Shown here: in pieces, positions 1 to 6,699 of the stretch | Layout of the letters: every line of letters starts with the position of its first letter | Position numbering within the stretch: position 1 is the first letter of the stretch | Origin: Escherichia coli | GTDB taxonomy: Bacteria; Pseudomonadota; Gammaproteobacteria; Enterobacterales; Enterobacteriaceae | Length of the DNA: 20,556 nucleotides | Assembly (NCBI GenBank): GCA_022664555.1 | Contig: GCA_022664555.1_4839.2 | Strand: one strand, 5' to 3' | The notes under the pieces: model-generated | The model's input: the letters and a program-made list of their open reading frames with translations, nothing else | Databases searched by the model: none | Told to the model about the DNA's origin: nothing | Translations under genes and position numbers: made by a program

Positions 1-1
1 C

Positions 2-154
2 ACCCATACCCGCGAACAGGGATTCATCGACAACCAGGGCAACTTCCTCACTCGTGAAGAGGCATGCATCGTAGCCCGTGAAGCTGGACAGATCAATCAG
101 GTGCGCCTGAAGACAACCCCGTTCCGCGAACTCTTTTCCGAAGACCTCTATTGA
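2..154 (+). CDS. 3' end of a gene truncated by the window edge (C-terminal ~50 aa), function unknown
   Basis: Frame 2 is open from the window edge to TGA at 152-154 (...GFIDNQGNFLTREEACIVAREAGQINQVRLK...). Not in the ORF track because it has no start in the window. Confidence 0.35.
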   Translation, partial: THTREQGFIDNQGNFLTREEACIVAREAGQINQVRLKTTPFRELFSEDLY

Positions 155-160
155 AGAAAA

Positions 161-194
161 AGGCGGTATTATACCGCCTCGACCTCTTGTTTGG
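161..194 (+). terminator. Possible intrinsic terminator after the truncated upstream gene
   Basis: Stem aggcggta/taccgcct (161-168 / 172-179) followed by a weak T-rich stretch (ctcttgtttgg). Confidence 0.3.
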
Positions 195-203
195 TAACAT
201 CAA

Positions 204-446
204 ATGAACCCAGAATTTGAAAATCTGTTCGAGCGATGCTTCGAACCAGGTTCTGTGTCCGGTTACATGGACCGCCTTTGCACTGCCATTGTAATACGCC
301 TTGCTGCCAAGGGTATCGTTGTCAACACCATTATCCGCAATGGGAACAACTTTATCATGCAGATGACTGATTATCACCACCGCACAGGCATCATCCAGGT
401 GTCATGTGTTGACAACAGCATTATTGAATGGAGACAGTACGCATGA
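204..446 (+). CDS. Hypothetical protein (80 aa)
   Basis: ATG at 204; stop TGA overlaps the next ATG (ATGA at 443-446), suggesting translational coupling. No clear SD upstream. Confidence 0.4.
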   Translation: MNPEFENLFERCFEPGSVSGYMDRLCTAIVIRLAAKGIVVNTIIRNGNNFIMQMTDYHHRTGIIQVSCVDNSIIEWRQYA

Positions 447-1042
447 CCACATATGTAATCAATGGTGGCGATCTACTGAAAGCCGCCTGTAGCTTCAATC
501 TGATCGACATCTTTGCCCACGGTGCCAACTGTTGGTCTACCATGGGCGCGGGTATTGCCCTGCACATCGGCAACAACTTCCCAGCGCTGCGCGAAGTCGA
601 TGCGAACGACCCTCGTGGTCCAGAGCAACGCCTGGGTGGTATGTCCTATGCATTTGACCACAGCAAGGGCGTTTGGGGCGCGAACCTCTACACTCAGTTT
701 TATCCAGGCCCTAACGCTCGCATGCCGTCTGTCATCAGTTCTGTTCAGACCCTGTTTGAGCAGGTGCATGAAATTGTGGAAGCAACTAAAGACGAAACTG
801 TCTATGTCGGCCTGCCTGCTATCGGCTGTGGTATTGGTGGTCTGAACCTCTACAGTGTAGTGCGCCATATCAATCGAATCTCTGAAAGCGTGTATGAAGA
901 GACCCGCCGTCGTGTCGTCCCAGTCTTCTATATCAGGGAAGGAGACGGATTCGATGATGATCTGATGGAACTTTCTCATCTGGACACAGAAGGTATCATG
1001 ATTGTCGAAGATGAGCAAGAAATCATCGACGAGGAGGGGTGA
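443..1042 (+). CDS. Macro-domain (ADP-ribose binding/processing) family protein
   Basis: ATG at 443 with GGAGA 7 nt upstream. Motifs IDIFAHGANCWSTMGAGIALHI and VYVGLPAIGCGIGGL resemble the two glycine-rich macro-domain signatures. Acidic C-terminal tail. Confidence 0.6.
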   Translation: MTTYVINGGDLLKAACSFNLIDIFAHGANCWSTMGAGIALHIGNNFPALREVDANDPRGPEQRLGGMSYAFDHSKGVWGANLYTQFYPGPNARMPSVISSVQTLFEQVHEIVEATKDETVYVGLPAIGCGIGGLNLYSVVRHINRISESVYEETRRRVVPVFYIREGDGFDDDLMELSHLDTEGIMIVEDEQEIIDEEG

Positions 1043-1045
1043 ATA

Positions 1046-1297
1046 ATGATATGCGCGTTTGATCAAGAATTTTATAAAAAGGTCAATATTCTAAAACTTG
1101 TCATGTCTGGAACTAGTTCGAAAGAAGTATCAGAAATTTATTGTATTTCACAGGCCAGGGTGAGCCAGATTTTGAGGGAAACTATAGGGTTACTTTGCCC
1201 AGAGATAGAAATTAAGCGCGTCAACAAAAAGTTCATTGATGAAAATTATTATACAGTAAAAGCCAAAATAAAGTGTTGGGAGAATAAGCATGTATAA
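1046..1297 (+). CDS. Small HTH DNA-binding protein (sigma-70 region-4 / NUMOD1-like helix-turn-helix)
   Basis: ATG at 1046 preceded by GAGGAGG. HTH-like segment SSKEVSEIYCISQARVSQILRE. The ORF lies in a visibly AT-rich island compared with its flanks. Confidence 0.55.
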   Translation: MICAFDQEFYKKVNILKLVMSGTSSKEVSEIYCISQARVSQILRETIGLLCPEIEIKRVNKKFIDENYYTVKAKIKCWENKHV

Positions 1298-1922
1298 ATC
1301 AAATTTTTTGGCTGTGGCTGACAGTGAAACCTTGGGGCGCTGGGATGATGCAGTCATGCTGTCTTGGGCGCACACCATCGCCGATCTGACCAAGCGTTAT
1401 ACACTTCAGCAGCTGGTTGAGGAGCGCACGACGTTCATTAAGCTGAATGTCAAAGAGCAGCTCGAACTTGGTCGCGTGAAGGACCAGGGGACGGTAGAAT
1501 GGTGGTTGGGGGCGGGTAAACGTAACCCGTGTGATGCGGCTCGCGCAGTCAGTCTGTACCCCAAGGAAGATGACATCTCTATCTTCCAATTGGCCGATGA
1601 AATCCGCAAGGGTTGCCATCGTCTTGGGGTAGACCCGCGCTCGGTTGACTGGTGTGATCGCAACCTGTTTGATCTGCGCAAGGCTCAGCACATCATTGAG
1701 GTGACATGTAAGCAGGACTCCAACGAGCCTTGGGACTACCACCACACCTTCGACATCGTGAGCTGGCTGAAGGGTGTTGGACAGCAGGATCGGTATGCTG
1801 GTATCAAGGCGTGGGAACTGGAAGGTATGGTCTATCATGACCCTCGTTATGACGCTGCGCTTGACTGGCTGCGTATTCAGAAGACCATGGAAGATCTGAT
1901 GGGGCTGGAGGTTGTGGGATGA
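1290..1922 (+). CDS. dexA: DEDDh-family 3'-5' exonuclease (T4 DexA-like)
   Basis: ATG at 1290 with GGGAGA upstream. Exo I motif AVADSETLG, Exo II-like NLFDL, Exo III motif HDPRYDAALDW (H-x4-D). Length and motif order match phage exonuclease A. Confidence 0.75.
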   Translation: MYKSNFLAVADSETLGRWDDAVMLSWAHTIADLTKRYTLQQLVEERTTFIKLNVKEQLELGRVKDQGTVEWWLGAGKRNPCDAARAVSLYPKEDDISIFQLADEIRKGCHRLGVDPRSVDWCDRNLFDLRKAQHIIEVTCKQDSNEPWDYHHTFDIVSWLKGVGQQDRYAGIKAWELEGMVYHDPRYDAALDWLRIQKTMEDLMGLEVVG

Positions 1923-2221
1923 TTGTATTCACTGTCATCGGTGTGATCGTAACAGCTGGGGTGTTCACAGCCATATTGGGCTACCTGTACTTCATGTTCC
2001 TTCATCCGTTATTTCAGGCGTTCAGTCTCACGAATTGGTACTTGGCCTGCCTAAAGGCCGACGGCGGCGTGAACACAGCCTCTCTTCCTTACTGGCGGCT
2101 GGTAGCGCATTACTACTCGGTCGGTGGATGGCCTGGGGAAAGGACATGGAACTCTATCGGTGAGTGGTATGGAATAGGTCGATGGCGTATATTCCCTGAT
2201 GAAGACGATCAAGCCCCGTGA
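1919..2221 (+). CDS. Small membrane protein (N-terminal transmembrane segment)
   Basis: ATGA overlap with the dexA stop. Hydrophobic N-terminus IVFTVIGVIVTAGVFTAILGYLYFMF. Terminator immediately downstream. Confidence 0.5.
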   Translation: MIVFTVIGVIVTAGVFTAILGYLYFMFLHPLFQAFSLTNWYLACLKADGGVNTASLPYWRLVAHYYSVGGWPGERTWNSIGEWYGIGRWRIFPDEDDQAP

Positions 2222-2234
2222 GGGGCTTTTCTAT
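2211..2234 (+). terminator. Rho-independent terminator
   Basis: agcccc-gtga-ggggct stem-loop (2212-2227) followed by TTTTCT; overlaps the stop codon of the preceding ORF. Confidence 0.6.
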
Positions 2235-2285
2235 ATCCGGGGTAGAGTATCATTGGTTCACCAATGAATCCTCGGGAGAGGTGAT

Positions 2286-2627
2286 ATGAAACGTTCGGTT
2301 GTCGTAAATGACATCACGAGATTGATAAACCTTGTCAAAGATGTGTTTCCACAACAGGTGGATGTCGAGTACGTGGGGAAGAACGGGAAGTGTTACCAGG
2401 TCGCTCTGTTGTTGAAGCACGTGTATCCCCAAGCAGAGATCCATTACAGTCAGACCGAAGGTCATGTGTATACTCTGATTGATGGGCATTACTACGACAT
2501 CGACGGCATCCACTTCAGTGTCCCACCGGACACGTGTTTGCTCGAACACAACAGAGGCCATAAACCCCATCGCTGGCATAAAGGATTTGTGAACGTACCA
2601 ATTTTAGAATGGTTGAGGAGACCATAA
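2286..2627 (+). CDS. Hypothetical protein (113 aa)
   Basis: ATG at 2286 with GGAGAGG 5-6 nt upstream; stop TAA overlaps the next start (TAATG). Confidence 0.55.
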
Positions 2628-3187
2628 TGGCAGGAATTGTGAAGTACCTGGGCGACACCCACCTCGGGCACAAGAAGATCTTCAAGCCCCGTGGGTTCGA
2701 CACGCAGGAAGCCCACGACGCTGTGGTCATCGACAGTATCTTTCAGGGGCTGAAGTCCCGAGACGTCCTTGAACTTGCAGGCGACATCTGCTTCATCGGG
2801 GCTGAGGGGTTCATTCGCCTGATGCGCGAGGGTGCCAAGCGGAATATTGATGAGTTCAAACGCCGCCCGGTTCCCGATGACTGGCGACCGAACTTTATCA
2901 TCAGGGTGGCGCAAGGCAACCATGACAATTTCAAGATGTTGATGCAGCTGTATCAAGAGGGATGGATTAGCTCCTTTGGTGCGATGTATGAGCGTGATAC
3001 TCCGGTTGGTCGTGTGCTGACCACTCACGTTCCTTATCAATTAGACCGCTGGGCGTATAATATCCATGGTCATCTTCACAGTGAAATGCGTGAAGAACGT
3101 GAATACCTGAACTGTAGTTGGGAACAATTCAAGCGCCCTGTAACCCTGTCTGAGTTGTTATACACCAATCTGGGGATTGAAATATGA
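2627..3187 (+). CDS. Calcineurin-like metallophosphoesterase
   Basis: ATG at 2627 with GAGGAG 6 nt upstream. Metallophosphatase motifs GDTHLG (GDxHG), GNHD (GNH[DE]) and HGHLH. Confidence 0.7.
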
Positions 3188-3501
3188 AAATTTATTTTCC
3201 TGGCCAAAAAGTGCCTTCTGAAGTGCAGAAGGTCACAATCACAGGCTACCGGAAAGGGGATCCATATCTGCGCTTCTCCTCTCCATGTATCGTGAAGCAA
3301 ACTAAAACGGGTTATTATATCAGGCCGATTGTGTTGATGGGCTGTGTAATGACGTTCAGAGCTTCCTGTGAACACGTTCTTATACAAGGAAGCCCGAACA
3401 TCGAAGGTGGAGAAACCCACACGAACTGCAAGCCGATTATCCCGACATGGTTGATTATTGGTGTGCTTTCCGTTTTAGCTCTGAAAGGAATATTGTCATG
3501 A
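3184..3501 (+). CDS. Hypothetical protein (105 aa) with hydrophobic C-terminus
   Basis: ATGA overlap with the preceding stop. C-terminal TM-like segment [18 protein letters not shown]. Confidence 0.45.
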
Positions 3502-3827
3502 AAAAGCCGCGTATTACAGGACACCAACTCTTGGTTCTCTACGGGATAGAGAACTTTGAGAAAGGTCATTACCGTTATGTTGAATGGTACTTGCATCCCA
3601 TATCCTGTACCAATGAGAAGTGCTACACGGTGTGTACGTTCAAGTTATTCACGATTTCTTGTGGTTTCACCTCCGTCAAAGGCAACCCCCGCACTGGGGC
3701 TTCCCTGCTCGCCAAGGGGTTGATCGAACCAGCTGGCTCAATGGTTCATGACGGTTCTTACGTGAACTGGCCGAACGCTGAGGTGACGTTCTATCGCCTG
3801 ACCGAACTCGGTAAATCTTATCTCTGA
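3498..3827 (+). CDS. Hypothetical protein (109 aa), possibly winged-helix-like
   Basis: ATG at 3498 (AAAGGA upstream), ATGA overlap with the preceding stop. The ORF-track start at 3447 looks like an upstream extension. Confidence 0.5.
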   Translation: MKKPRITGHQLLVLYGIENFEKGHYRYVEWYLHPISCTNEKCYTVCTFKLFTISCGFTSVKGNPRTGASLLAKGLIEPAGSMVHDGSYVNWPNAEVTFYRLTELGKSYL

Positions 3828-3851
3828 ATAAAGATTCAGCGGTTATTGAAG

Positions 3852-3883
3852 AAGGGGGAGTATATACTTCCCCTTAGTTTATT
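3852..3883 (+). terminator. Rho-independent terminator
   Basis: 10-bp stem aagggggagt/acttcccctt (one G-U pair) with loop atat, followed by agTTTATT. Preceded by the 10-mer gttattgaag. Confidence 0.6.
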
Positions 3884-3897
3884 AAGAGGAACCGGAA

Positions 3898-4212
3898 ATG
3901 ACCCCATTAAAAGAAATGTATGAGCGCCTGGCTGAACTACAGGCGAAGGAAAAGCGCTTCTCAGAAGAAGAGTCTGAAATCTCCGAGCTGAACACTTTGA
4001 TCGCCACTCGCGAGAAGTACCTGCAGCGCTACATTAATCACCCACCGCGCATGGTAGACCGCGTCAGCACTATCATGGACCTGGATGAAGTTACTCCTGG
4101 CAAAGAAATCATTGTCAGGGAAGTCCATCAGATGGTCGCCATGGGTCAGATCTTTGGTCGTGCAGACCAAGACGACATGATGTTCCTCCTTGAAAAGAAA
4201 CTGGTGATGTGA
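3898..4212 (+). CDS. Hypothetical protein (104 aa)
   Basis: ATG at 3898 with AAGAGGA 7 nt upstream; stop TGA overlaps the cd start. Confidence 0.55.
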   Translation: MTPLKEMYERLAELQAKEKRFSEEESEISELNTLIATREKYLQRYINHPPRMVDRVSTIMDLDEVTPGKEIIVREVHQMVAMGQIFGRADQDDMMFLLEKKLVM

Positions 4213-4718
4213 TGGCTATCAAACCCCGTATGTTGTTTGCGCATATGCGCTCGGCTCATGCATACGCTCTGTCCAGCTATGCCCAGCGCCTGAAGGTCGG
4301 CTGTGTTATCGTTGACCCGCGTGTTGACCAGCCCCTGTCTATCGGTTGGAACGGGACTGCTCCTGGCGCTCCTAATGTCTGTGAGAAGGAAGTAGACGGT
4401 CAACTGGTATATGTGGGTGTTATCCACGCCTAGGATAATGCTCTGATCAAACTCCCCCAGCACACCGAAGACTGTTGTGGCCTGGTGATGTTTGTCACTC
4501 ATAGTCCATGCCCAGAGTGCACCCGTCGTATTATCGACAGTGGCAAGATCGCTAAAGTGTTCTATGACCGACAATATAGTATCACAGACTGTATTATTGA
4601 AATGCTGGCTGCTGGAATTGAAGTATATCGCATGGTCGATCAGGTTGTTGTAGTCCAGCATTCTGTGAAGAACGGCGAACTGGTATCCACCCCTGTTTTA
4701 GTGAACCCTGACAAATAA
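4212..4718 (+). pseudogene. cd: dCMP deaminase (cd) interrupted by an in-frame amber codon (TAG at 4431-4433) at the catalytic-Glu position
   Basis: Single 168-codon frame. N-part VGCVIVD...SIGWNGTAPG...VIHA, then TAG, then DNALIKL...THSPCPEC. This matches the deaminase zinc motifs H-A-E and PCxxC, with the stop where E is expected. ORF-track fragments are 4209..4433 and 4485..4718, in the same frame. Confidence 0.75.
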
Positions 4719-4728
4719 GGAATTTATC

Positions 4729-5136
4729 ATGCGTTATGTAGATCGTATGCTCGGCAAAGACGAGCACGTTATTGCCTTCACCCGCCCGACTTGGTGGAGC
4801 GGTTTTTGGATTTATGTTCTGGTTATTTTAACGTTTATTCCAACATTTGGATTCAGCTTGTTATTTCTGATACCAACAATTTTAAATGTATTGACAACTG
4901 AATTCGCTGTGACTAACAAGCGCGTCATCGTCAAGCGCGGGTTCATCCGTCGTGATGCTGATGAGTTGCGCATTGGTAAGGTGGAGACAGTGAAGGTTGA
5001 TCAGTCCATCACAGGCCGCATCTTGGGTTTCTCAACAATCAGCGTGATCGGTACGGGCGGCACCCGCCTGCTGGCCAAGGGTTGTGCTGGTGGTAATGCG
5101 TTCCGTCAGAAGATCTACGATCACCTAGAAGACTGA
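4729..5136 (+). CDS. Membrane protein with bacterial PH-like (DUF304-type) domain
   Basis: ATG at 4729 with AAGGA upstream. Two hydrophobic segments followed by a TNKRVIVKRGFIRRDADELRIGKVETVKVDQSITGRILGF pattern. Confidence 0.55.
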   Translation: MRYVDRMLGKDEHVIAFTRPTWWSGFWIYVLVILTFIPTFGFSLLFLIPTILNVLTTEFAVTNKRVIVKRGFIRRDADELRIGKVETVKVDQSITGRILGFSTISVIGTGGTRLLAKGCAGGNAFRQKIYDHLED

Positions 5137-5138
5137 TC

Positions 5139-5351
5139 ATGATCATTTCAGGTTACACCATCGATCTTTATTGTGAATGCTCAGATTGCAAGGCATGCAG
5201 TTGGGCTTGGGAAGAGCATCACCCCAAGTGCGGGTTCAAACAATACACTGGTGAGACTTGGGGTGAGTGTGTCAAACAGGCGCGAGCAGACGGCTGGCAA
5301 ATTGGGCGCGACAGGCATACCTGTTACGCCCCTGGCCACAAGAGAAGTTAA
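5139..5351 (+). CDS. Small cysteine-rich protein (possible zinc-binding)
   Basis: 70 aa with CECSDCKAC ... HHPKC ... C ... C spacing; follows the previous stop by 2 nt. Confidence 0.45.
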   Translation: MIISGYTIDLYCECSDCKACSWAWEEHHPKCGFKQYTGETWGECVKQARADGWQIGRDRHTCYAPGHKRS

Positions 5352-5962
5352 GGTAAGAGCAGTCCATCATCCCGCTCCGTTGGGGCGGGTTTAATCTCCT
5401 TCCGCATCTGTTCTTTCAAGAATCTGACACGCTCGGCATGTCGGCGATCTTGCATCTCCATATCCCGTTTCTTTTTCGACTTCAATTCGAACTGTTTACG
5501 AACATCCGGATCTTCACCTGGAACAAGATGCTCTTCGGTCCAGATAATGAACTTCCAGTTCTTCTTGGCACACAGTTCGCGGGTGGCCTCCCACTTGGCA
5601 GAATTGACCAACCAGGTTCGCATCGCATTGTTGAACGTCGACTCCTTCATGTTCGGAGTCTTCTTCGGCTGCTTGATCTGGTCTTTGGGCTTGATCTCAA
5701 TGAGGGTGACCTGTAGTTCCTCTTGCCCTTCACGGCGCGTCCAGACCTTGAGGTCCATGAAGTAACGATGGGTGCGCCCGTCTACTGGGGAAATGTAAGG
5801 GATTACGGTCTCCTCGTTTTCCCAGAAAATGATCGCAGGATTAGTATCACAAAACTTGAAAGCCACAAGTTCCAAAGAAGATCGAAATACGATTTTGTTT
5901 GGGTTGCCTTTGTACTTTTTAGGATTGACAGGAACATATTTCCCTTGAAGATATTGCGCCAT
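5348..5962 (-). CDS. Hypothetical protein with PD-(D/E)xK-like nuclease motif and lysine-rich C-terminus
   Basis: ATG at 5962 with GGAGGA upstream, overlapping the seg stop (TAATG). Motif ...PYISPVDGRTHRYFMDLKVW... (D ... D-L-K). Confidence 0.5.
   Translation of the reverse strand: MAQYLQGKYVPVNPKKYKGNPNKIVFRSSLELVAFKFCDTNPAIIFWENEETVIPYISPVDGRTHRYFMDLKVWTRREGQEELQVTLIEIKPKDQIKQPKKTPNMKESTFNNAMRTWLVNSAKWEATRELCAKKNWKFIIWTEEHLVPGEDPDVRKQFELKSKKKRDMEMQDRRHAERVRFLKEQMRKEIKPAPTERDDGLLLP
5371..5395. terminator. Possible bidirectional terminator hairpin between convergent genes
   Basis: cccgctcc-gtt-ggggcggg stem-loop followed by TTTAAT. It lies in the last codons of the minus-strand ORF, so the assignment is tentative. 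Confidence 0.3.
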
Positions 5963-6699
5963 TATGCTTTCCTCCAACCTTTATGCTGTAAATTGCGACC
6001 CTTGTTTACGTGGCCCATGGAGCCTTCGCTCAAACCGATTTCTTTACAAAATTTTGCCAGGTTGACAATTGTCACCAACTGCCCTTCTGGGTTGATGAAT
6101 TTGAATTCTCGGGAATTGGCCTCGGATATTCTCTCGCGCCCTTCTTTCGTCACAGCCCCTTTGCAATTAGAGTAATCTACCAACCCCAATTCAACAAGTC
6201 GCTTATTTGAATTTCTTATTTTGTCCCTGGTTTGCTGGTCTACAACACAACCAAATCTTGGGTTATTTTCTCCCGAACGATCTTTTCCAAACCAAAAATT
6301 TCTAGAACCGTTTAGCGCTCTTGAACGATAAATTCTTTCCAGTTCTTCTTTTGGTTTAGAGAGTAATGTGTTCAGAGCTTTGGTAGACGCCTGCTTTCTA
6401 GCCTCTGGGTCTGAATTGATGTGGTCGAAGGATCCACATCCACCCAGCGTCAAATTGTATGTATCTTCCCTTTCTATAAAATCTTTGGTTACTATTCTGG
6501 ATTCTTCTAGGTACATTTGTTCCTGAGTTTCACACTCCAATAAAATATCCTTTCTGAAGTTTTCAACTCCATGTTTCTTGATTGCTCTGGTTATCATAAC
6601 ACCAGAACCCATATAGCCATCATCCGGTTCGCCTTTGTGGGCACCAACATATATCTTACCGTTTAGAAGATTGGTTATCTGGTAGACGAAGTATCTCAT
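5962..6699 (-). CDS. GIY-YIG homing endonuclease (Seg-like)
   Basis: N-terminal YFVYQITNLLNGKIYVGA ... GYMGSG ... E ... N matches the GIY-YIG catalytic module. C-terminal half has NUMOD-like DNA-binding repeats. GC is visibly lower than in the flanks. Confidence 0.8.
   Translation of the reverse strand: MRYFVYQITNLLNGKIYVGAHKGEPDDGYMGSGVMITRAIKKHGVENFRKDILLECETQEQMYLEESRIVTKDFIEREDTYNLTLGGCGSFDHINSDPEARKQASTKALNTLLSKPKEELERIYRSRALNGSRNFWFGKDRSGENNPRFGCVVDQQTRDKIRNSNKRLVELGLVDYSNCKGAVTKEGRERISEANSREFKFINPEGQLVTIVNLAKFCKEIGLSEGSMGHVNKGRNLQHKGWRKA
5962..6699 (-). mobile_element. Free-standing homing endonuclease gene inserted between nuclease and baseplate genes
   Basis: Same ORF as the Seg-like CDS; intergenic placement and compositional difference from neighbours. 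Confidence 0.55.

Follow-up and report, generated by a model that had tools for sequence, protein, structure and literature searches.

The locus analysed here raises the question whether two phage genes lying close together, one for a DexA-like exonuclease and the other for a compact phosphoesterase, form a single early operon that degrades nucleotide signals or nucleic acids, as the original prediction had proposed. The window, by which we mean the whole stretch of 20,556 nucleotides analysed, belongs to a phage of the Ackermannviridae with Ag3 and A221 as close relatives (~95% DNA identity; megablast 95–96%), in agreement with the phage origin assumed earlier, and both ORFs are present on the + strand at the positions first proposed for them (Table 1). 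Both genes are known, and hundreds of GenBank records of Ackermannviridae already give them a name; the Ag3/A221-type megablast relatives label them 'DexA exonuclease' and 'putative serine/threonine protein phosphatase / phosphoesterase'. Annotating them is routine, and they do not make up a new type of system. Our analysis suggests, with moderate confidence, that dexA and the phosphoesterase gene are accessory genes, each conserved on its own, in the left-arm region of this phage and not a dedicated two-enzyme module.

Table 1. Features of the region around dexA and the phosphoesterase gene, with positions counted from the first nucleotide of the window.
Feature	Position	Strand	Evidence or remark
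80-aa ORF, first gene of cassette 1	204–446	+	
Macro-domain protein (Tk.4-like, DarG-macrodomain-like), cassette 1	428–1042	+	phrog_335 1e-63; NCBIfam DarG 2.6e-8; PADLOC DarG 2.6e-7
83-aa HTH ORF, sporadic ~250 bp insertion between macro and dexA genes	1046–1297	+	weak HTH/Sigma70_r4 matches
DexA-family DEDDh 3'-5' exonuclease, 210 aa	1290–1922	+	phrog_255, PDB 8KEL, motif positions
DexA catalytic codons	D11 1320–1322; E13 1326–1328; D128 1671–1673; H183 1836–1838; D188 1851–1853	+	
100-aa membrane protein (phrog_2531), last gene of cassette 1	1919–2221	+	start overlaps dexA stop by 4 nt
Intrinsic-terminator-like hairpin and T-tract, AAGCCCCGTGAGGGGCTTTTCTAT, between cassettes	2211–2234	+	terminator scan; -13.8 kcal/mol
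TAT(C/T)ATTG element, -10-hexamer-like	2248–2255	+	invariant columns in six-sequence alignment A4; ~30 nt upstream of next gene
YunG-like protein, 113 aa, first gene of cassette 2	2286–2627	+	PF24591 3e-43; phrog_4814
Binuclear metallophosphoesterase, aq_1665 / T5-orf4c type (phrog_547), 186 aa	2627–3187	+	
Phosphoesterase ligand codons	D10 2654–2656; H12 2660–2662; D53 2783–2785; N98 2918–2920	+	
Phosphoesterase ligand codons, continued	H99 2921–2923; H134 3026–3028; H149 3071–3073; H151 3077–3079	+	
DUF7618 protein with C-terminal hydrophobic (TM-like) segment	3184–3501	+	PF24594 1e-48; start overlaps phosphoesterase stop by 4 nt
phrog_4677 protein, last gene of cassette 2	3498–3827	+	phrog_4677
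Terminator-like hairpin closing cassette 2	3852–3875	+	terminator scan; -15.6 kcal/mol, z=-2.6

The exonuclease ORF matches phrog_255 ('exonuclease') with E=9e-53 and is matched by none of the Pfam models. T4 DexA (PDB 8KEL) aligns with it end to end over residues 9–207 (phmmer E=1.4e-4), and all five DEDDh catalytic residues are in place opposite the T4 positions D7, E9, D119, H186 and D191, which were taken from PMC12153337 and the 8KEL alignment. The D-x-E of Exo I is formed by D11-S-E13 opposite D7-F-E9 of T4, the Exo II aspartate is D128 (..NLFD) opposite D119 (..MSFD), and the H-x4-D of Exo III, characteristic of the 'h' subtype, is formed by H183-DPRY-D188 opposite H186-D191. The full-length match to 8KEL, the PHROG assignment and these five residues together confirm the label 'DexA-like exonuclease'. 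Homologues are present in 341 phage records.

Apart from the shared family and catalytic residues, the protein is similar in size to T4 DexA (PDB 8KEL/8KEN; 210 against 227 aa), and its gene shares a nucleotide-metabolism region resembling that of T4 with cd and tk.4-like genes. However, the pairwise match between the two proteins is remote, and they differ at W152 of T4 DexA, which has been reported to stack on 5hmC (PMC12153337). This tryptophan is a histidine in the window protein, while D169 is kept. The window phage is not known to use 5hmC; discrimination between modified and unmodified DNA, if there is any, would therefore have to work differently. By homology to T4 DexA, whose role is taken from PMC12153337, the most probable activity of the enzyme is the degradation of single-stranded or nicked DNA to 5'-dNMPs, and such digestion would serve the scavenging of host DNA as well as resection during homing and recombination.

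The second protein matches phrog_547 ('phosphoesterase') with E=4e-44. All five superfamily motifs (DxH, GD, GNH(D/E), H and GHxH) are present, as GDTH at residues 9–12, GD at 52–53, GNHD at 97–100, THVP at 133–136 and GHLH at 148–151. None of the metal ligands (D10/H12, D53, N98/H99, H134 and H149/H151) varies among 13 close (alignment A1) and 40 diverse (A2) homologues, and the active site is intact. GNHD and GHLH had been recognised from the beginning, but the GDxHG given with them does not hold, as motif I reads GDTHLGH (GDxHxGH) and is not of the PPP type. Position 2627 is taken as the start because M1-A2-G3 is invariant among the homologues; an alternative start at 2609 is ruled out by the same invariant MAG.

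An AF2 model (pLDDT 87) of the 186-aa protein has the calcineurin-like metallophosphoesterase fold with its beta-sandwich, which together with the invariant ligands and the phrog_547 match bears out the earlier description of a compact calcineurin-type enzyme. Family placement was reached through profile searches and structure. There is no direct match to Pfam Metallophos at E<=0.01, and scans with Pfam and NCBIfam returned only noise (Peptidase_S37; PdeM at 17 bits), but 19 of 40 profile-linked relatives match PF00149 and 17 of 40 match PF12850. The matches of a BFVD fold search were all phage proteins, either unnamed or called 'putative phosphoesterase'. Residues ~57–90 form a helical insertion that is specific to the clade; in comparison with A2, which covers the family broadly, the phage clade carries roughly 20–30 extra residues after motif II, in which R67, R72, W86 and R87 are invariant.

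Are the two genes parts of one operon? The two enzymes are encoded in two neighbouring cassettes of translationally coupled genes, each bounded by a hairpin. The first cassette includes the macro-domain gene, which had been noted upstream and proves to be real by its phrog_335, NCBIfam DarG and PADLOC DarG matches, and which is annotated as 'Tk.4 protein' in Ag3. The HTH ORF following it is absent from A221 and Ag3 and occurs in only four phage records. In the second cassette, the stop of the YunG-like gene overlaps the start of the phosphoesterase gene (TGATG). The hairpin between the cassettes is identical except for its loop in five of five related loci (A221, Ag3, S118, K751 and IME250), and none like it is expected by chance within the window. 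However, its stem is only 7 bp long and its stability is unexceptional (z=-1.9). The hairpin may terminate transcription, but read-through could still co-transcribe both cassettes. The succession of the hairpin and the TATCATTG element is kept in three genera, and TAT(C/T)ATTG is a possible promoter of the second cassette; in a sigma-70 promoter scan, matches were not above chance and none was located before either cassette. The hairpin closing the second cassette has a homologue in S118, while in IME250 a hairpin at a similar place showed up on the - strand alone.

Gene content around the two enzymes is variable. Two genes lie between dexA and the phosphoesterase gene in the window, and two to four across the loci compared; which genes these are differs between genera. 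The membrane protein gene has homologues in K751, IME250, S118 and Ag3, but Taipeivirus has other genes in place of the YunG-like gene, and Ag3 has a different gene at the DUF7618 position. Limestonevirus (LIMEstone1) lacks the whole stretch from the macro-domain gene through the phrog_4677 gene, and phage A221 has a nonsense codon at W113 of the phosphoesterase. Both cassettes are dispensable in some relatives. Outside the Ackermannviridae, all loci inspected, for example those of T5, Acinetobacter phage ZZ1 and Listeria phages, contain the phosphoesterase family without DexA. The conserved hairpin, the variable intervening genes and the occurrence of the family without DexA argue against one operon or functional module. 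However, the order of dexA followed by the phosphoesterase gene is constant across Agtrevirus, Kuttervirus and Taipeivirus, which is compatible with a loose functional link. Early expression, as originally proposed, can only be presumed from genome position; our search of the literature on Ackermannviridae transcriptomics returned nothing specific and no transcript data.

The phosphoesterase belongs to a large family, which counts 2,132 representatives at E<=1e-3 when clustered at 50% identity. Members occur in 2,493 phage records, roughly 5% of the sequenced phage genome records. Many of these are T5-like, Herelleviridae or Ackermannviridae, and hundreds of matches are to Salmonella, Escherichia and Vibrio phages. 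The window protein shares the family signatures GD-x-H-x-x-H, R-G-F, R-W..N-x-H-G-H-x-H and Y-x-N, and H15, R22, F24, R141, N145 and Y160 are nearly invariant in the family. Longer members carry fused domains, none of which is informative. In the literature found on COG4186, the T5 phosphoesterase and anti-defence metallophosphoesterases, no substrate has been demonstrated for any aq_1665 / T5-orf4c member. Because the family is this large (~2,100 representatives, ~2,500 phage records) and has no experimentally defined substrate, one biochemical characterisation would annotate many phage genes.

Comparison with described proteins places the enzyme without revealing its function. The structural-genomics metallophosphoesterase aq_1665 of Aquifex aeolicus (PDB 1XM7) is only ~20% identical to it, and since aq_1665 has no known substrate the match transfers no function. 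A clear homologue is T5 orf4c (hhalign probability 99.9, E=1e-35; ~29% identity by tblastn), which is of the same length class and has the same ligand set. However, orf4c does not have the helical insertion, follows a NinI/PP2A-like protein phosphatase (orf5c), has no DexA nearby and is located in the annotated early C-region, whereas early expression of the window gene is a matter of conjecture. PdeM, the nuclease metallophosphoesterase of Pseudomonas putida, is distinct, as the window protein reaches 17.2 bits with the TIGR04123 model, whose cut-off is 150. Mre11/SbcD differs as well, the window protein having 186 aa and no capping or extra domain, and relatives including Ag3 encode separate gp47/gp46. 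The metallophosphoesterase of cluster A mycobacteriophages (A10ZJ24 gp48 / Bxb1 gp47) is early and has been reported to be a phosphodiesterase and to damage host DNA (PMC12287305); it is thus a phage-encoded precedent for action on nucleic acids. It is of another subfamily and has 255 aa; kinship with the window protein was rejected, as hhalign matches the GNHD motif alone (probability 0.5%), and the host-DNA-damage function is not transferable.

Gene neighbourhoods were compared in 80 IMG/VR loci from a search seeded with the single protein P0082. DnaB helicase (20 loci), UvsX (12) and PolA fragments (~18) are found among the replication and recombination neighbours, and Rnl1 ligase (7), AAA_33+HD kinase (7) and HAD phosphatase (10) among the others; the contexts are mixed, and since many of the 80 loci belong to related lineages the counts do not represent independent cases. 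Most of the family contexts are DNA replication and recombination modules; in some, genes for RNA ligase and kinase are the neighbours. In Acinetobacter phage ZZ1 the family gene is located between gp47 and gp46.

We agree with the original prediction that the function of the phosphoesterase is not deducible from sequence. As no substrate has been demonstrated in the family, its substrate class is here drawn from fold neighbours and gene context, and our best guess is that it acts on nucleic acids, which would fit both. The protein is a small binuclear metallophosphoesterase, probably Mn2+-dependent. Its most likely substrates are the termini of nucleic acids, short oligonucleotides or nucleotides, on which it would act as a phosphodiesterase or phosphomonoesterase. 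Such an enzyme would belong to the turnover of nucleic acids or the processing of their ends and would not dephosphorylate proteins.

More specific roles can be envisaged, each of them improbable. One is that of an RNA end-healing 2',3'-cyclic phosphodiesterase / 3'-phosphatase mending tRNAs cut by host anticodon nucleases. RNA end-healing of this kind is performed by the metallophosphoesterase domain of Clostridium thermocellum Pnkp. In several different IMG/VR gene arrangements, family members are direct neighbours of T4 Rnl1-type RNA ligase and AAA_33+HD kinase genes, and in a Listeria phage the distance between the family member and genes for a tRNA-splicing ligase and DUF1768/NADAR is ~3.5 kb. 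Calcineurin-like phosphoesterases have also been described in rV5-type RNA-repair neighbourhoods by Iyer et al. 2022 (PMC9503650). However, most family contexts consist of DNA replication genes, neither an RNA ligase nor a polynucleotide kinase is annotated in the complete genome of the close relative Ag3, and tblastn with Rnl1 and AAA_33+HD representatives against Ag3 finds nothing (best E 0.99 and 0.06), which speaks against this role in the window phage.

An equally unlikely proposal is that of a nucleotide-pool enzyme, a (d)NMP/(d)NTP phosphohydrolase which either shapes the pools for modified-thymidine DNA or removes alarm mononucleotides such as m6dAMP, set free by DexA-type nucleases from host DNA and sensed by Metis / PUA-Cal-HAD defences. 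The region carries a dCMP deaminase gene in addition to dexA, and thymidylate-synthase-like and MazG genes are also encoded by Ackermannviridae. A fold relative of the phosphoesterase is carried by Delftia phage PhiW-14 (BFVD), and the DNA of both PhiW-14 and Ackermannviridae contains hypermodified thymidine. However, T5 has a homologue although, to our knowledge, its DNA is not modified, the gene is missing from Limestonevirus of the same family, and no nucleotidase-specific features were identified in the protein. Recent work describes host defences that respond to m6dAMP arising as the host genome is degraded, but T5 is still sensitive to Metis (10.1101/2025.11.05.686725).

The role originally put forward, hydrolysis of cyclic or linear oligonucleotide signals (CBASS, Pycsar, type III CRISPR, 2'-5' oligoadenylate-like) as a counter-defence, perhaps together with DexA, likewise has little probability. 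The protein is small and soluble with a phosphodiesterase-type fold and an intact active site, its gene is accessory, as seen from Limestonevirus and A221, and the DarG-like macrodomain gene in the same region is a plausible anti-DarT gene. However, the known phage enzymes that degrade such signals have unrelated folds, Acb1 being a 2H phosphoesterase, Apyc1 a metallo-beta-lactamase and AcrIII-1 a ring nuclease (DUF1874). All they would have in common with the phosphoesterase is the activity proposed for it, cleaving phosphodiester bonds in small nucleotides, and no metallophosphoesterase is among the known signal-degrading enzymes in the literature found. In a PADLOC scan of nine neighbouring proteins only the macro-domain protein gave a match, to DarG, and the phosphoesterase showed no similarity. 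Moreover, the family is widespread and often located inside replication modules, unlike the patchiness typical of anti-defence genes. With its fold, the PADLOC result and the literature found all against it, this part of the original prediction is not upheld.

Slightly less probable still is a broader version, in which the phrog_547 phosphoesterase would be an unrecognised counter-defence enzyme destroying a nucleotide-derived alarm, either a cyclic oligonucleotide or the m6dAMP which DexA-type digestion of the host chromosome would release and Metis-type systems would sense. If true, the location of the phosphoesterase gene near dexA in Ackermannviridae would reflect a strategy of first degrading the host and then erasing the evidence.

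Least probable of all is the role given by the database label, a Ser/Thr protein phosphatase of the lambda-PP / NinI type acting on host or phage proteins: although the GenBank records of Ag3, A221, K751, S118 and others use this name and lambda / NinI-type PPP enzymes (PDB 1G5B) share the calcineurin-like binuclear superfamily fold and GNH(D/E), their GDxHG and GDxVDRG signatures are absent and replaced by GDTHLGH and GDICFIG without the phosphate-binding Arg, the closest structural and sequence relatives are not PPP phosphatases (in the fold comparison lambda PP (7.4) and PP5 (6.9) are outranked by others), and the label originated from a similarity note to a T5 protein, in a phage that has the separate PP2A/NinI-like orf5c directly beside the true homologue orf4c, a 'phosphoesterase'. 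The GenBank name thus appears to be an annotation carry-over and is very probably wrong; 'metallophosphoesterase, aq_1665/T5-orf4c family' is the better designation.

The phosphoesterase of the window is an intact predicted binuclear hydrolase belonging to a large, uncharacterised phage family. The invariant N-terminal M-A-G of its homologues places the start at 2627; the ATG overlaps the stop codon of the upstream gene (TGATG) and GAGGAG is present 8 nt upstream. The full motif set (GDTH 9-12, GD 52-53, GNHD 97-100, THVP 133-136 and GHLH 148-151) and a match to phrog_547 "phosphoesterase" at 4e-44 bear out the compact metallophosphoesterase of the original prediction; there is no direct match to Pfam Metallophos. 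GNHD and GHLH had been named correctly, but the predicted GDxHG is slightly off, the real sequence being GDTHLGH. This difference matters because GDxHG is the signature of PPP protein phosphatases.

Only 17 close relatives were retrieved by a word-indexed protein search, and a family profile built from 13 of these was run against 1.8 billion cluster representatives; with a cut-off of E<=1e-3 it picked up 2,132 proteins, the majority 155-200 aa long. Alignment of 40 sequences of the wider family reveals that D10, H12, G52, D53, G97, N98, H99, H134, P136, H147, H149 and H151 are invariant and H15, R22, F24, D100, R141, N145 and Y160 nearly so; about half of these 40 relatives match PF00149 or PF12850. 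In the Ackermannviridae clade motif II is followed by ~30 additional residues (about 57-90); this segment is predicted with high confidence to be helical, and its R67, R72, W86 and R87 are clade-invariant. BFVD matches of the protein (AlphaFold2 model: pLDDT 87, pTM 0.85) are all unnamed or "putative phosphoesterase", and no informative fused domain is present among the family members examined. Using one typical member as tblastn query, the family was found in 2,493 of 50,697 phage records, in T5-like phages, Ackermannviridae, Herelleviridae, Acinetobacter T4-likes, rV5-likes, jumbo phages and actinophages. About one phage genome record in twenty carries the family, and the question of its substrate is all that has broader value here.

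In related phage records the gene is named "putative serine/threonine protein phosphatase", "phosphoesterase" or "metallophosphatase". The common name "serine/threonine protein phosphatase" is most likely a carry-over error, because T5 orf5c, a PP2A/NinI-like protein phosphatase, lies immediately upstream of orf4c and the Ag3 annotation names a T5 "serine/threonine protein phosphatase" as its source. Profile-profile comparison identifies orf4c, a "putative phosphoesterase" of the T5 early C-region, as a clear homologue of the window protein (probability 99.9, E=1e-35). In contrast, it reveals no relationship to Bxb1 gp47 (metallophosphoesterase, 255 aa), for whose A10ZJ24 homologue host-DNA damage has recently been reported (PMC12287305).

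Neighbours within 2.5 kb of family members were clustered for 80 IMG/VR loci and the cluster representatives scanned against Pfam. DnaB-type helicase (20 of the 80 loci), family A DNA polymerase pieces (about 18), UvsX/RecA (12), HAD phosphatase (10) and, in 7 loci each, an AAA_25 primase-helicase-like protein, T4 Rnl1-type RNA ligase, AAA_33+HD kinase and a DUF6267+cytidylyltransferase protein were present, in a handful of lineage-specific architectures, and therefore these counts are not independent. The family gene lies between gp47 and gp46 in Acinetobacter phage ZZ1, and in a Listeria phage it has a tRNA-splicing ligase gene and a NADAR gene nearby; rV5-type RNA-repair neighbourhoods with calcineurin-like phosphoesterases are mentioned by Iyer et al. 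(PMC9503650). The family is thus found among nucleic-acid enzymes, and from these gene contexts and the fold neighbours we favour a nucleic acid or nucleotide over a protein as the substrate.

In several unrelated uncultivated phages (IMG/VR loci L020-L022, L039, L058, L074 and L081), the Rnl1-type ligase and AAA_33+HD kinase adjoin a phrog_547-type phosphoesterase, a grouping which looks like an RNA heal-and-seal cassette around the metallophosphoesterase. For the phage in the window RNA repair is unlikely: neither an RNA ligase nor a polynucleotide kinase is annotated in the complete genome of Ag3, and tblastn of the Rnl1 and kinase representatives against it also gave no match. Action on immune second messengers, as proposed originally, is conceivable but received no specific support, and PADLOC models show no resemblance to the nine proteins of the region except for the DarG-like macrodomain. 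Defences sensing m6dAMP set free by phage-driven host-DNA degradation have recently been described (10.1101/2025.11.05.686725), and in principle this alarm signal could be removed by a phage phosphoesterase. However, this is speculative, and T5 is sensitive to that system despite its homologue, which argues against such a role.

The DexA-like exonuclease also holds: it matches phrog_255 "exonuclease" (E=9e-53), aligns along its entire length with T4 DexA (PDB 8KEL; E=1.4e-4), and its D11, E13, D128, H183 and D188 align with D7, E9, D119, H186 and D191, the catalytic set given in the DexA structure paper (PMC12153337). T4 DexA W152, reported to stack on 5hmC (PMC12153337), is His in the window protein whereas D169 is kept in both. 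Judged by sequence, the enzyme most likely does the same job as T4 DexA, 3'-5' digestion of DNA to mononucleotides.

Megablast of window positions 1-6000 matched 232 phage records, the best being Ackermannviridae phages of Escherichia, Enterobacter and Salmonella (A221, fGh-Ecl02, LHE287 and Ag3; 88-96% identity, >90% of the query covered). There the exonuclease gene is named "DexA exonuclease / exonuclease A"; both it and the phosphoesterase gene are already known and annotated.

Open reading frames and hairpins of the + strand region
Feature	Coordinates	Strand	Source or position
Macro-domain ORF	428-1042	+	ORF listing
HTH ORF, 83 aa	1046-1297	+	ORF listing
DexA-like exonuclease ORF	1290-1922	+	ORF listing
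Membrane-protein ORF	1919-2221	+	ORF listing
GC-rich hairpin + T-rich tract	2211-2228	+	between dexA and phosphoesterase blocks
YunG-like ORF	2286-2627	+	ORF listing
Phosphoesterase ORF	2609/2627-3187	+	ORF listing
DUF7618 ORF	3184-3501	+	ORF listing
phrog_4677 ORF	3498-3827	+	ORF listing
GC-rich hairpin + T-rich tract	3852-3875	+	after phosphoesterase block
GC-rich hairpin	5371-5389	+	further one, after block 3898-5351

The sequence observations of the original prediction are correct apart from the detail of motif I and the placing of both genes in one operon. The + strand genes form three blocks of overlapping or nearly abutting members (204-2221, 2286-3827 and 3898-5351), separated by gaps of 64 nt and 70 nt, each with a GC-rich hairpin that leads into a T-rich tract. 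The hairpin and tail between the dexA and phosphoesterase blocks, AAGCCCCnnnnGGGGCTTTTCTAT, is the same except for the loop in A221, Ag3, S118 (Kuttervirus), K751 and IME250 (both Taipeivirus), in every case where the small membrane-protein gene 3' of dexA ends; chance alone would give none in the window. TAT(C/T)ATTG at 2248-2255, ~14 nt past this hairpin and kept in all six aligned sequences (Agtrevirus, Kuttervirus, Taipeivirus), is a possible promoter -10 element of the next cassette. The genes lying between dexA and the phosphoesterase also change from genus to genus: the window and Ag3 have two (membrane protein, YunG-like), K751 likewise has two, S118 has four, and those of IME250 include a QueC-like gene. 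The gene 3' of the phosphoesterase varies as well, DUF7618 in the window being another gene in Ag3. The dexA-phosphoesterase neighbourhood is synteny inside one phage family and not a conserved pair; we infer both the "early" expression and the two transcription units. A GC-rich hairpin at 160-180, after the Arn.3-like gene, recurs in K751 and IME250; it and the three hairpins in the table each close one of successive cassettes of tightly packed overlapping genes.

Dickeya phage LIMEstone1 (L010 5167-6185), of the same subfamily, lacks a ~3.4 kb stretch comprising macro, dexA, membrane protein, YunG-like, phosphoesterase, DUF7618 and phrog_4677 genes; its topoisomerase and two small ORFs are directly followed by the ORF preceding dCMP deaminase. 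In other Ackermannviridae the stretch lies between topoisomerase and cd, and it is a variable accessory island. The A221 phosphoesterase orthologue (L001 3381-3941), annotated in GenBank as two CDS, is interrupted by a stop codon at W113, upstream of motifs IV and V; unless due to a sequencing error, this suggests that the phage can do without the gene in culture. The variation of intervening genes, the loss in LIMEstone1 and the A221 stop therefore mark both cassettes as dispensable accessory DNA.

The Tk.4-like macro-domain protein is similar to the macrodomain of the antitoxin DarG (NCBIfam 2.6e-8, PADLOC 2.6e-7); it may be an enzyme that reverses DarT-type DNA ADP-ribosylation. An AT-rich insertion of ~250 bp separates macro from dexA, is absent from A221 and Ag3, and encodes the HTH protein, which is unrelated to the 114-aa gene of Kuttervirus at the same position; just 4 of 50,697 phage records have this HTH gene, each time immediately 5' of dexA. 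The dCMP deaminase gene (4209-4718) has an in-frame TAG at 4434-4436 that falls precisely on the codon for the catalytic Glu of its HAE motif (..GVIHA*DNAL..), where A221 and S118 have GAG; it is an amber mutant, a pseudogene or a sequencing error. A GIY-YIG-type homing endonuclease gene (5962-6699, - strand), located between the gp4 head-completion and gp48 baseplate genes, is missing from the nearest relatives, megablast coverage resuming at ~6695, and the F-LimII homing endonuclease occupies the same site in LIMEstone1.
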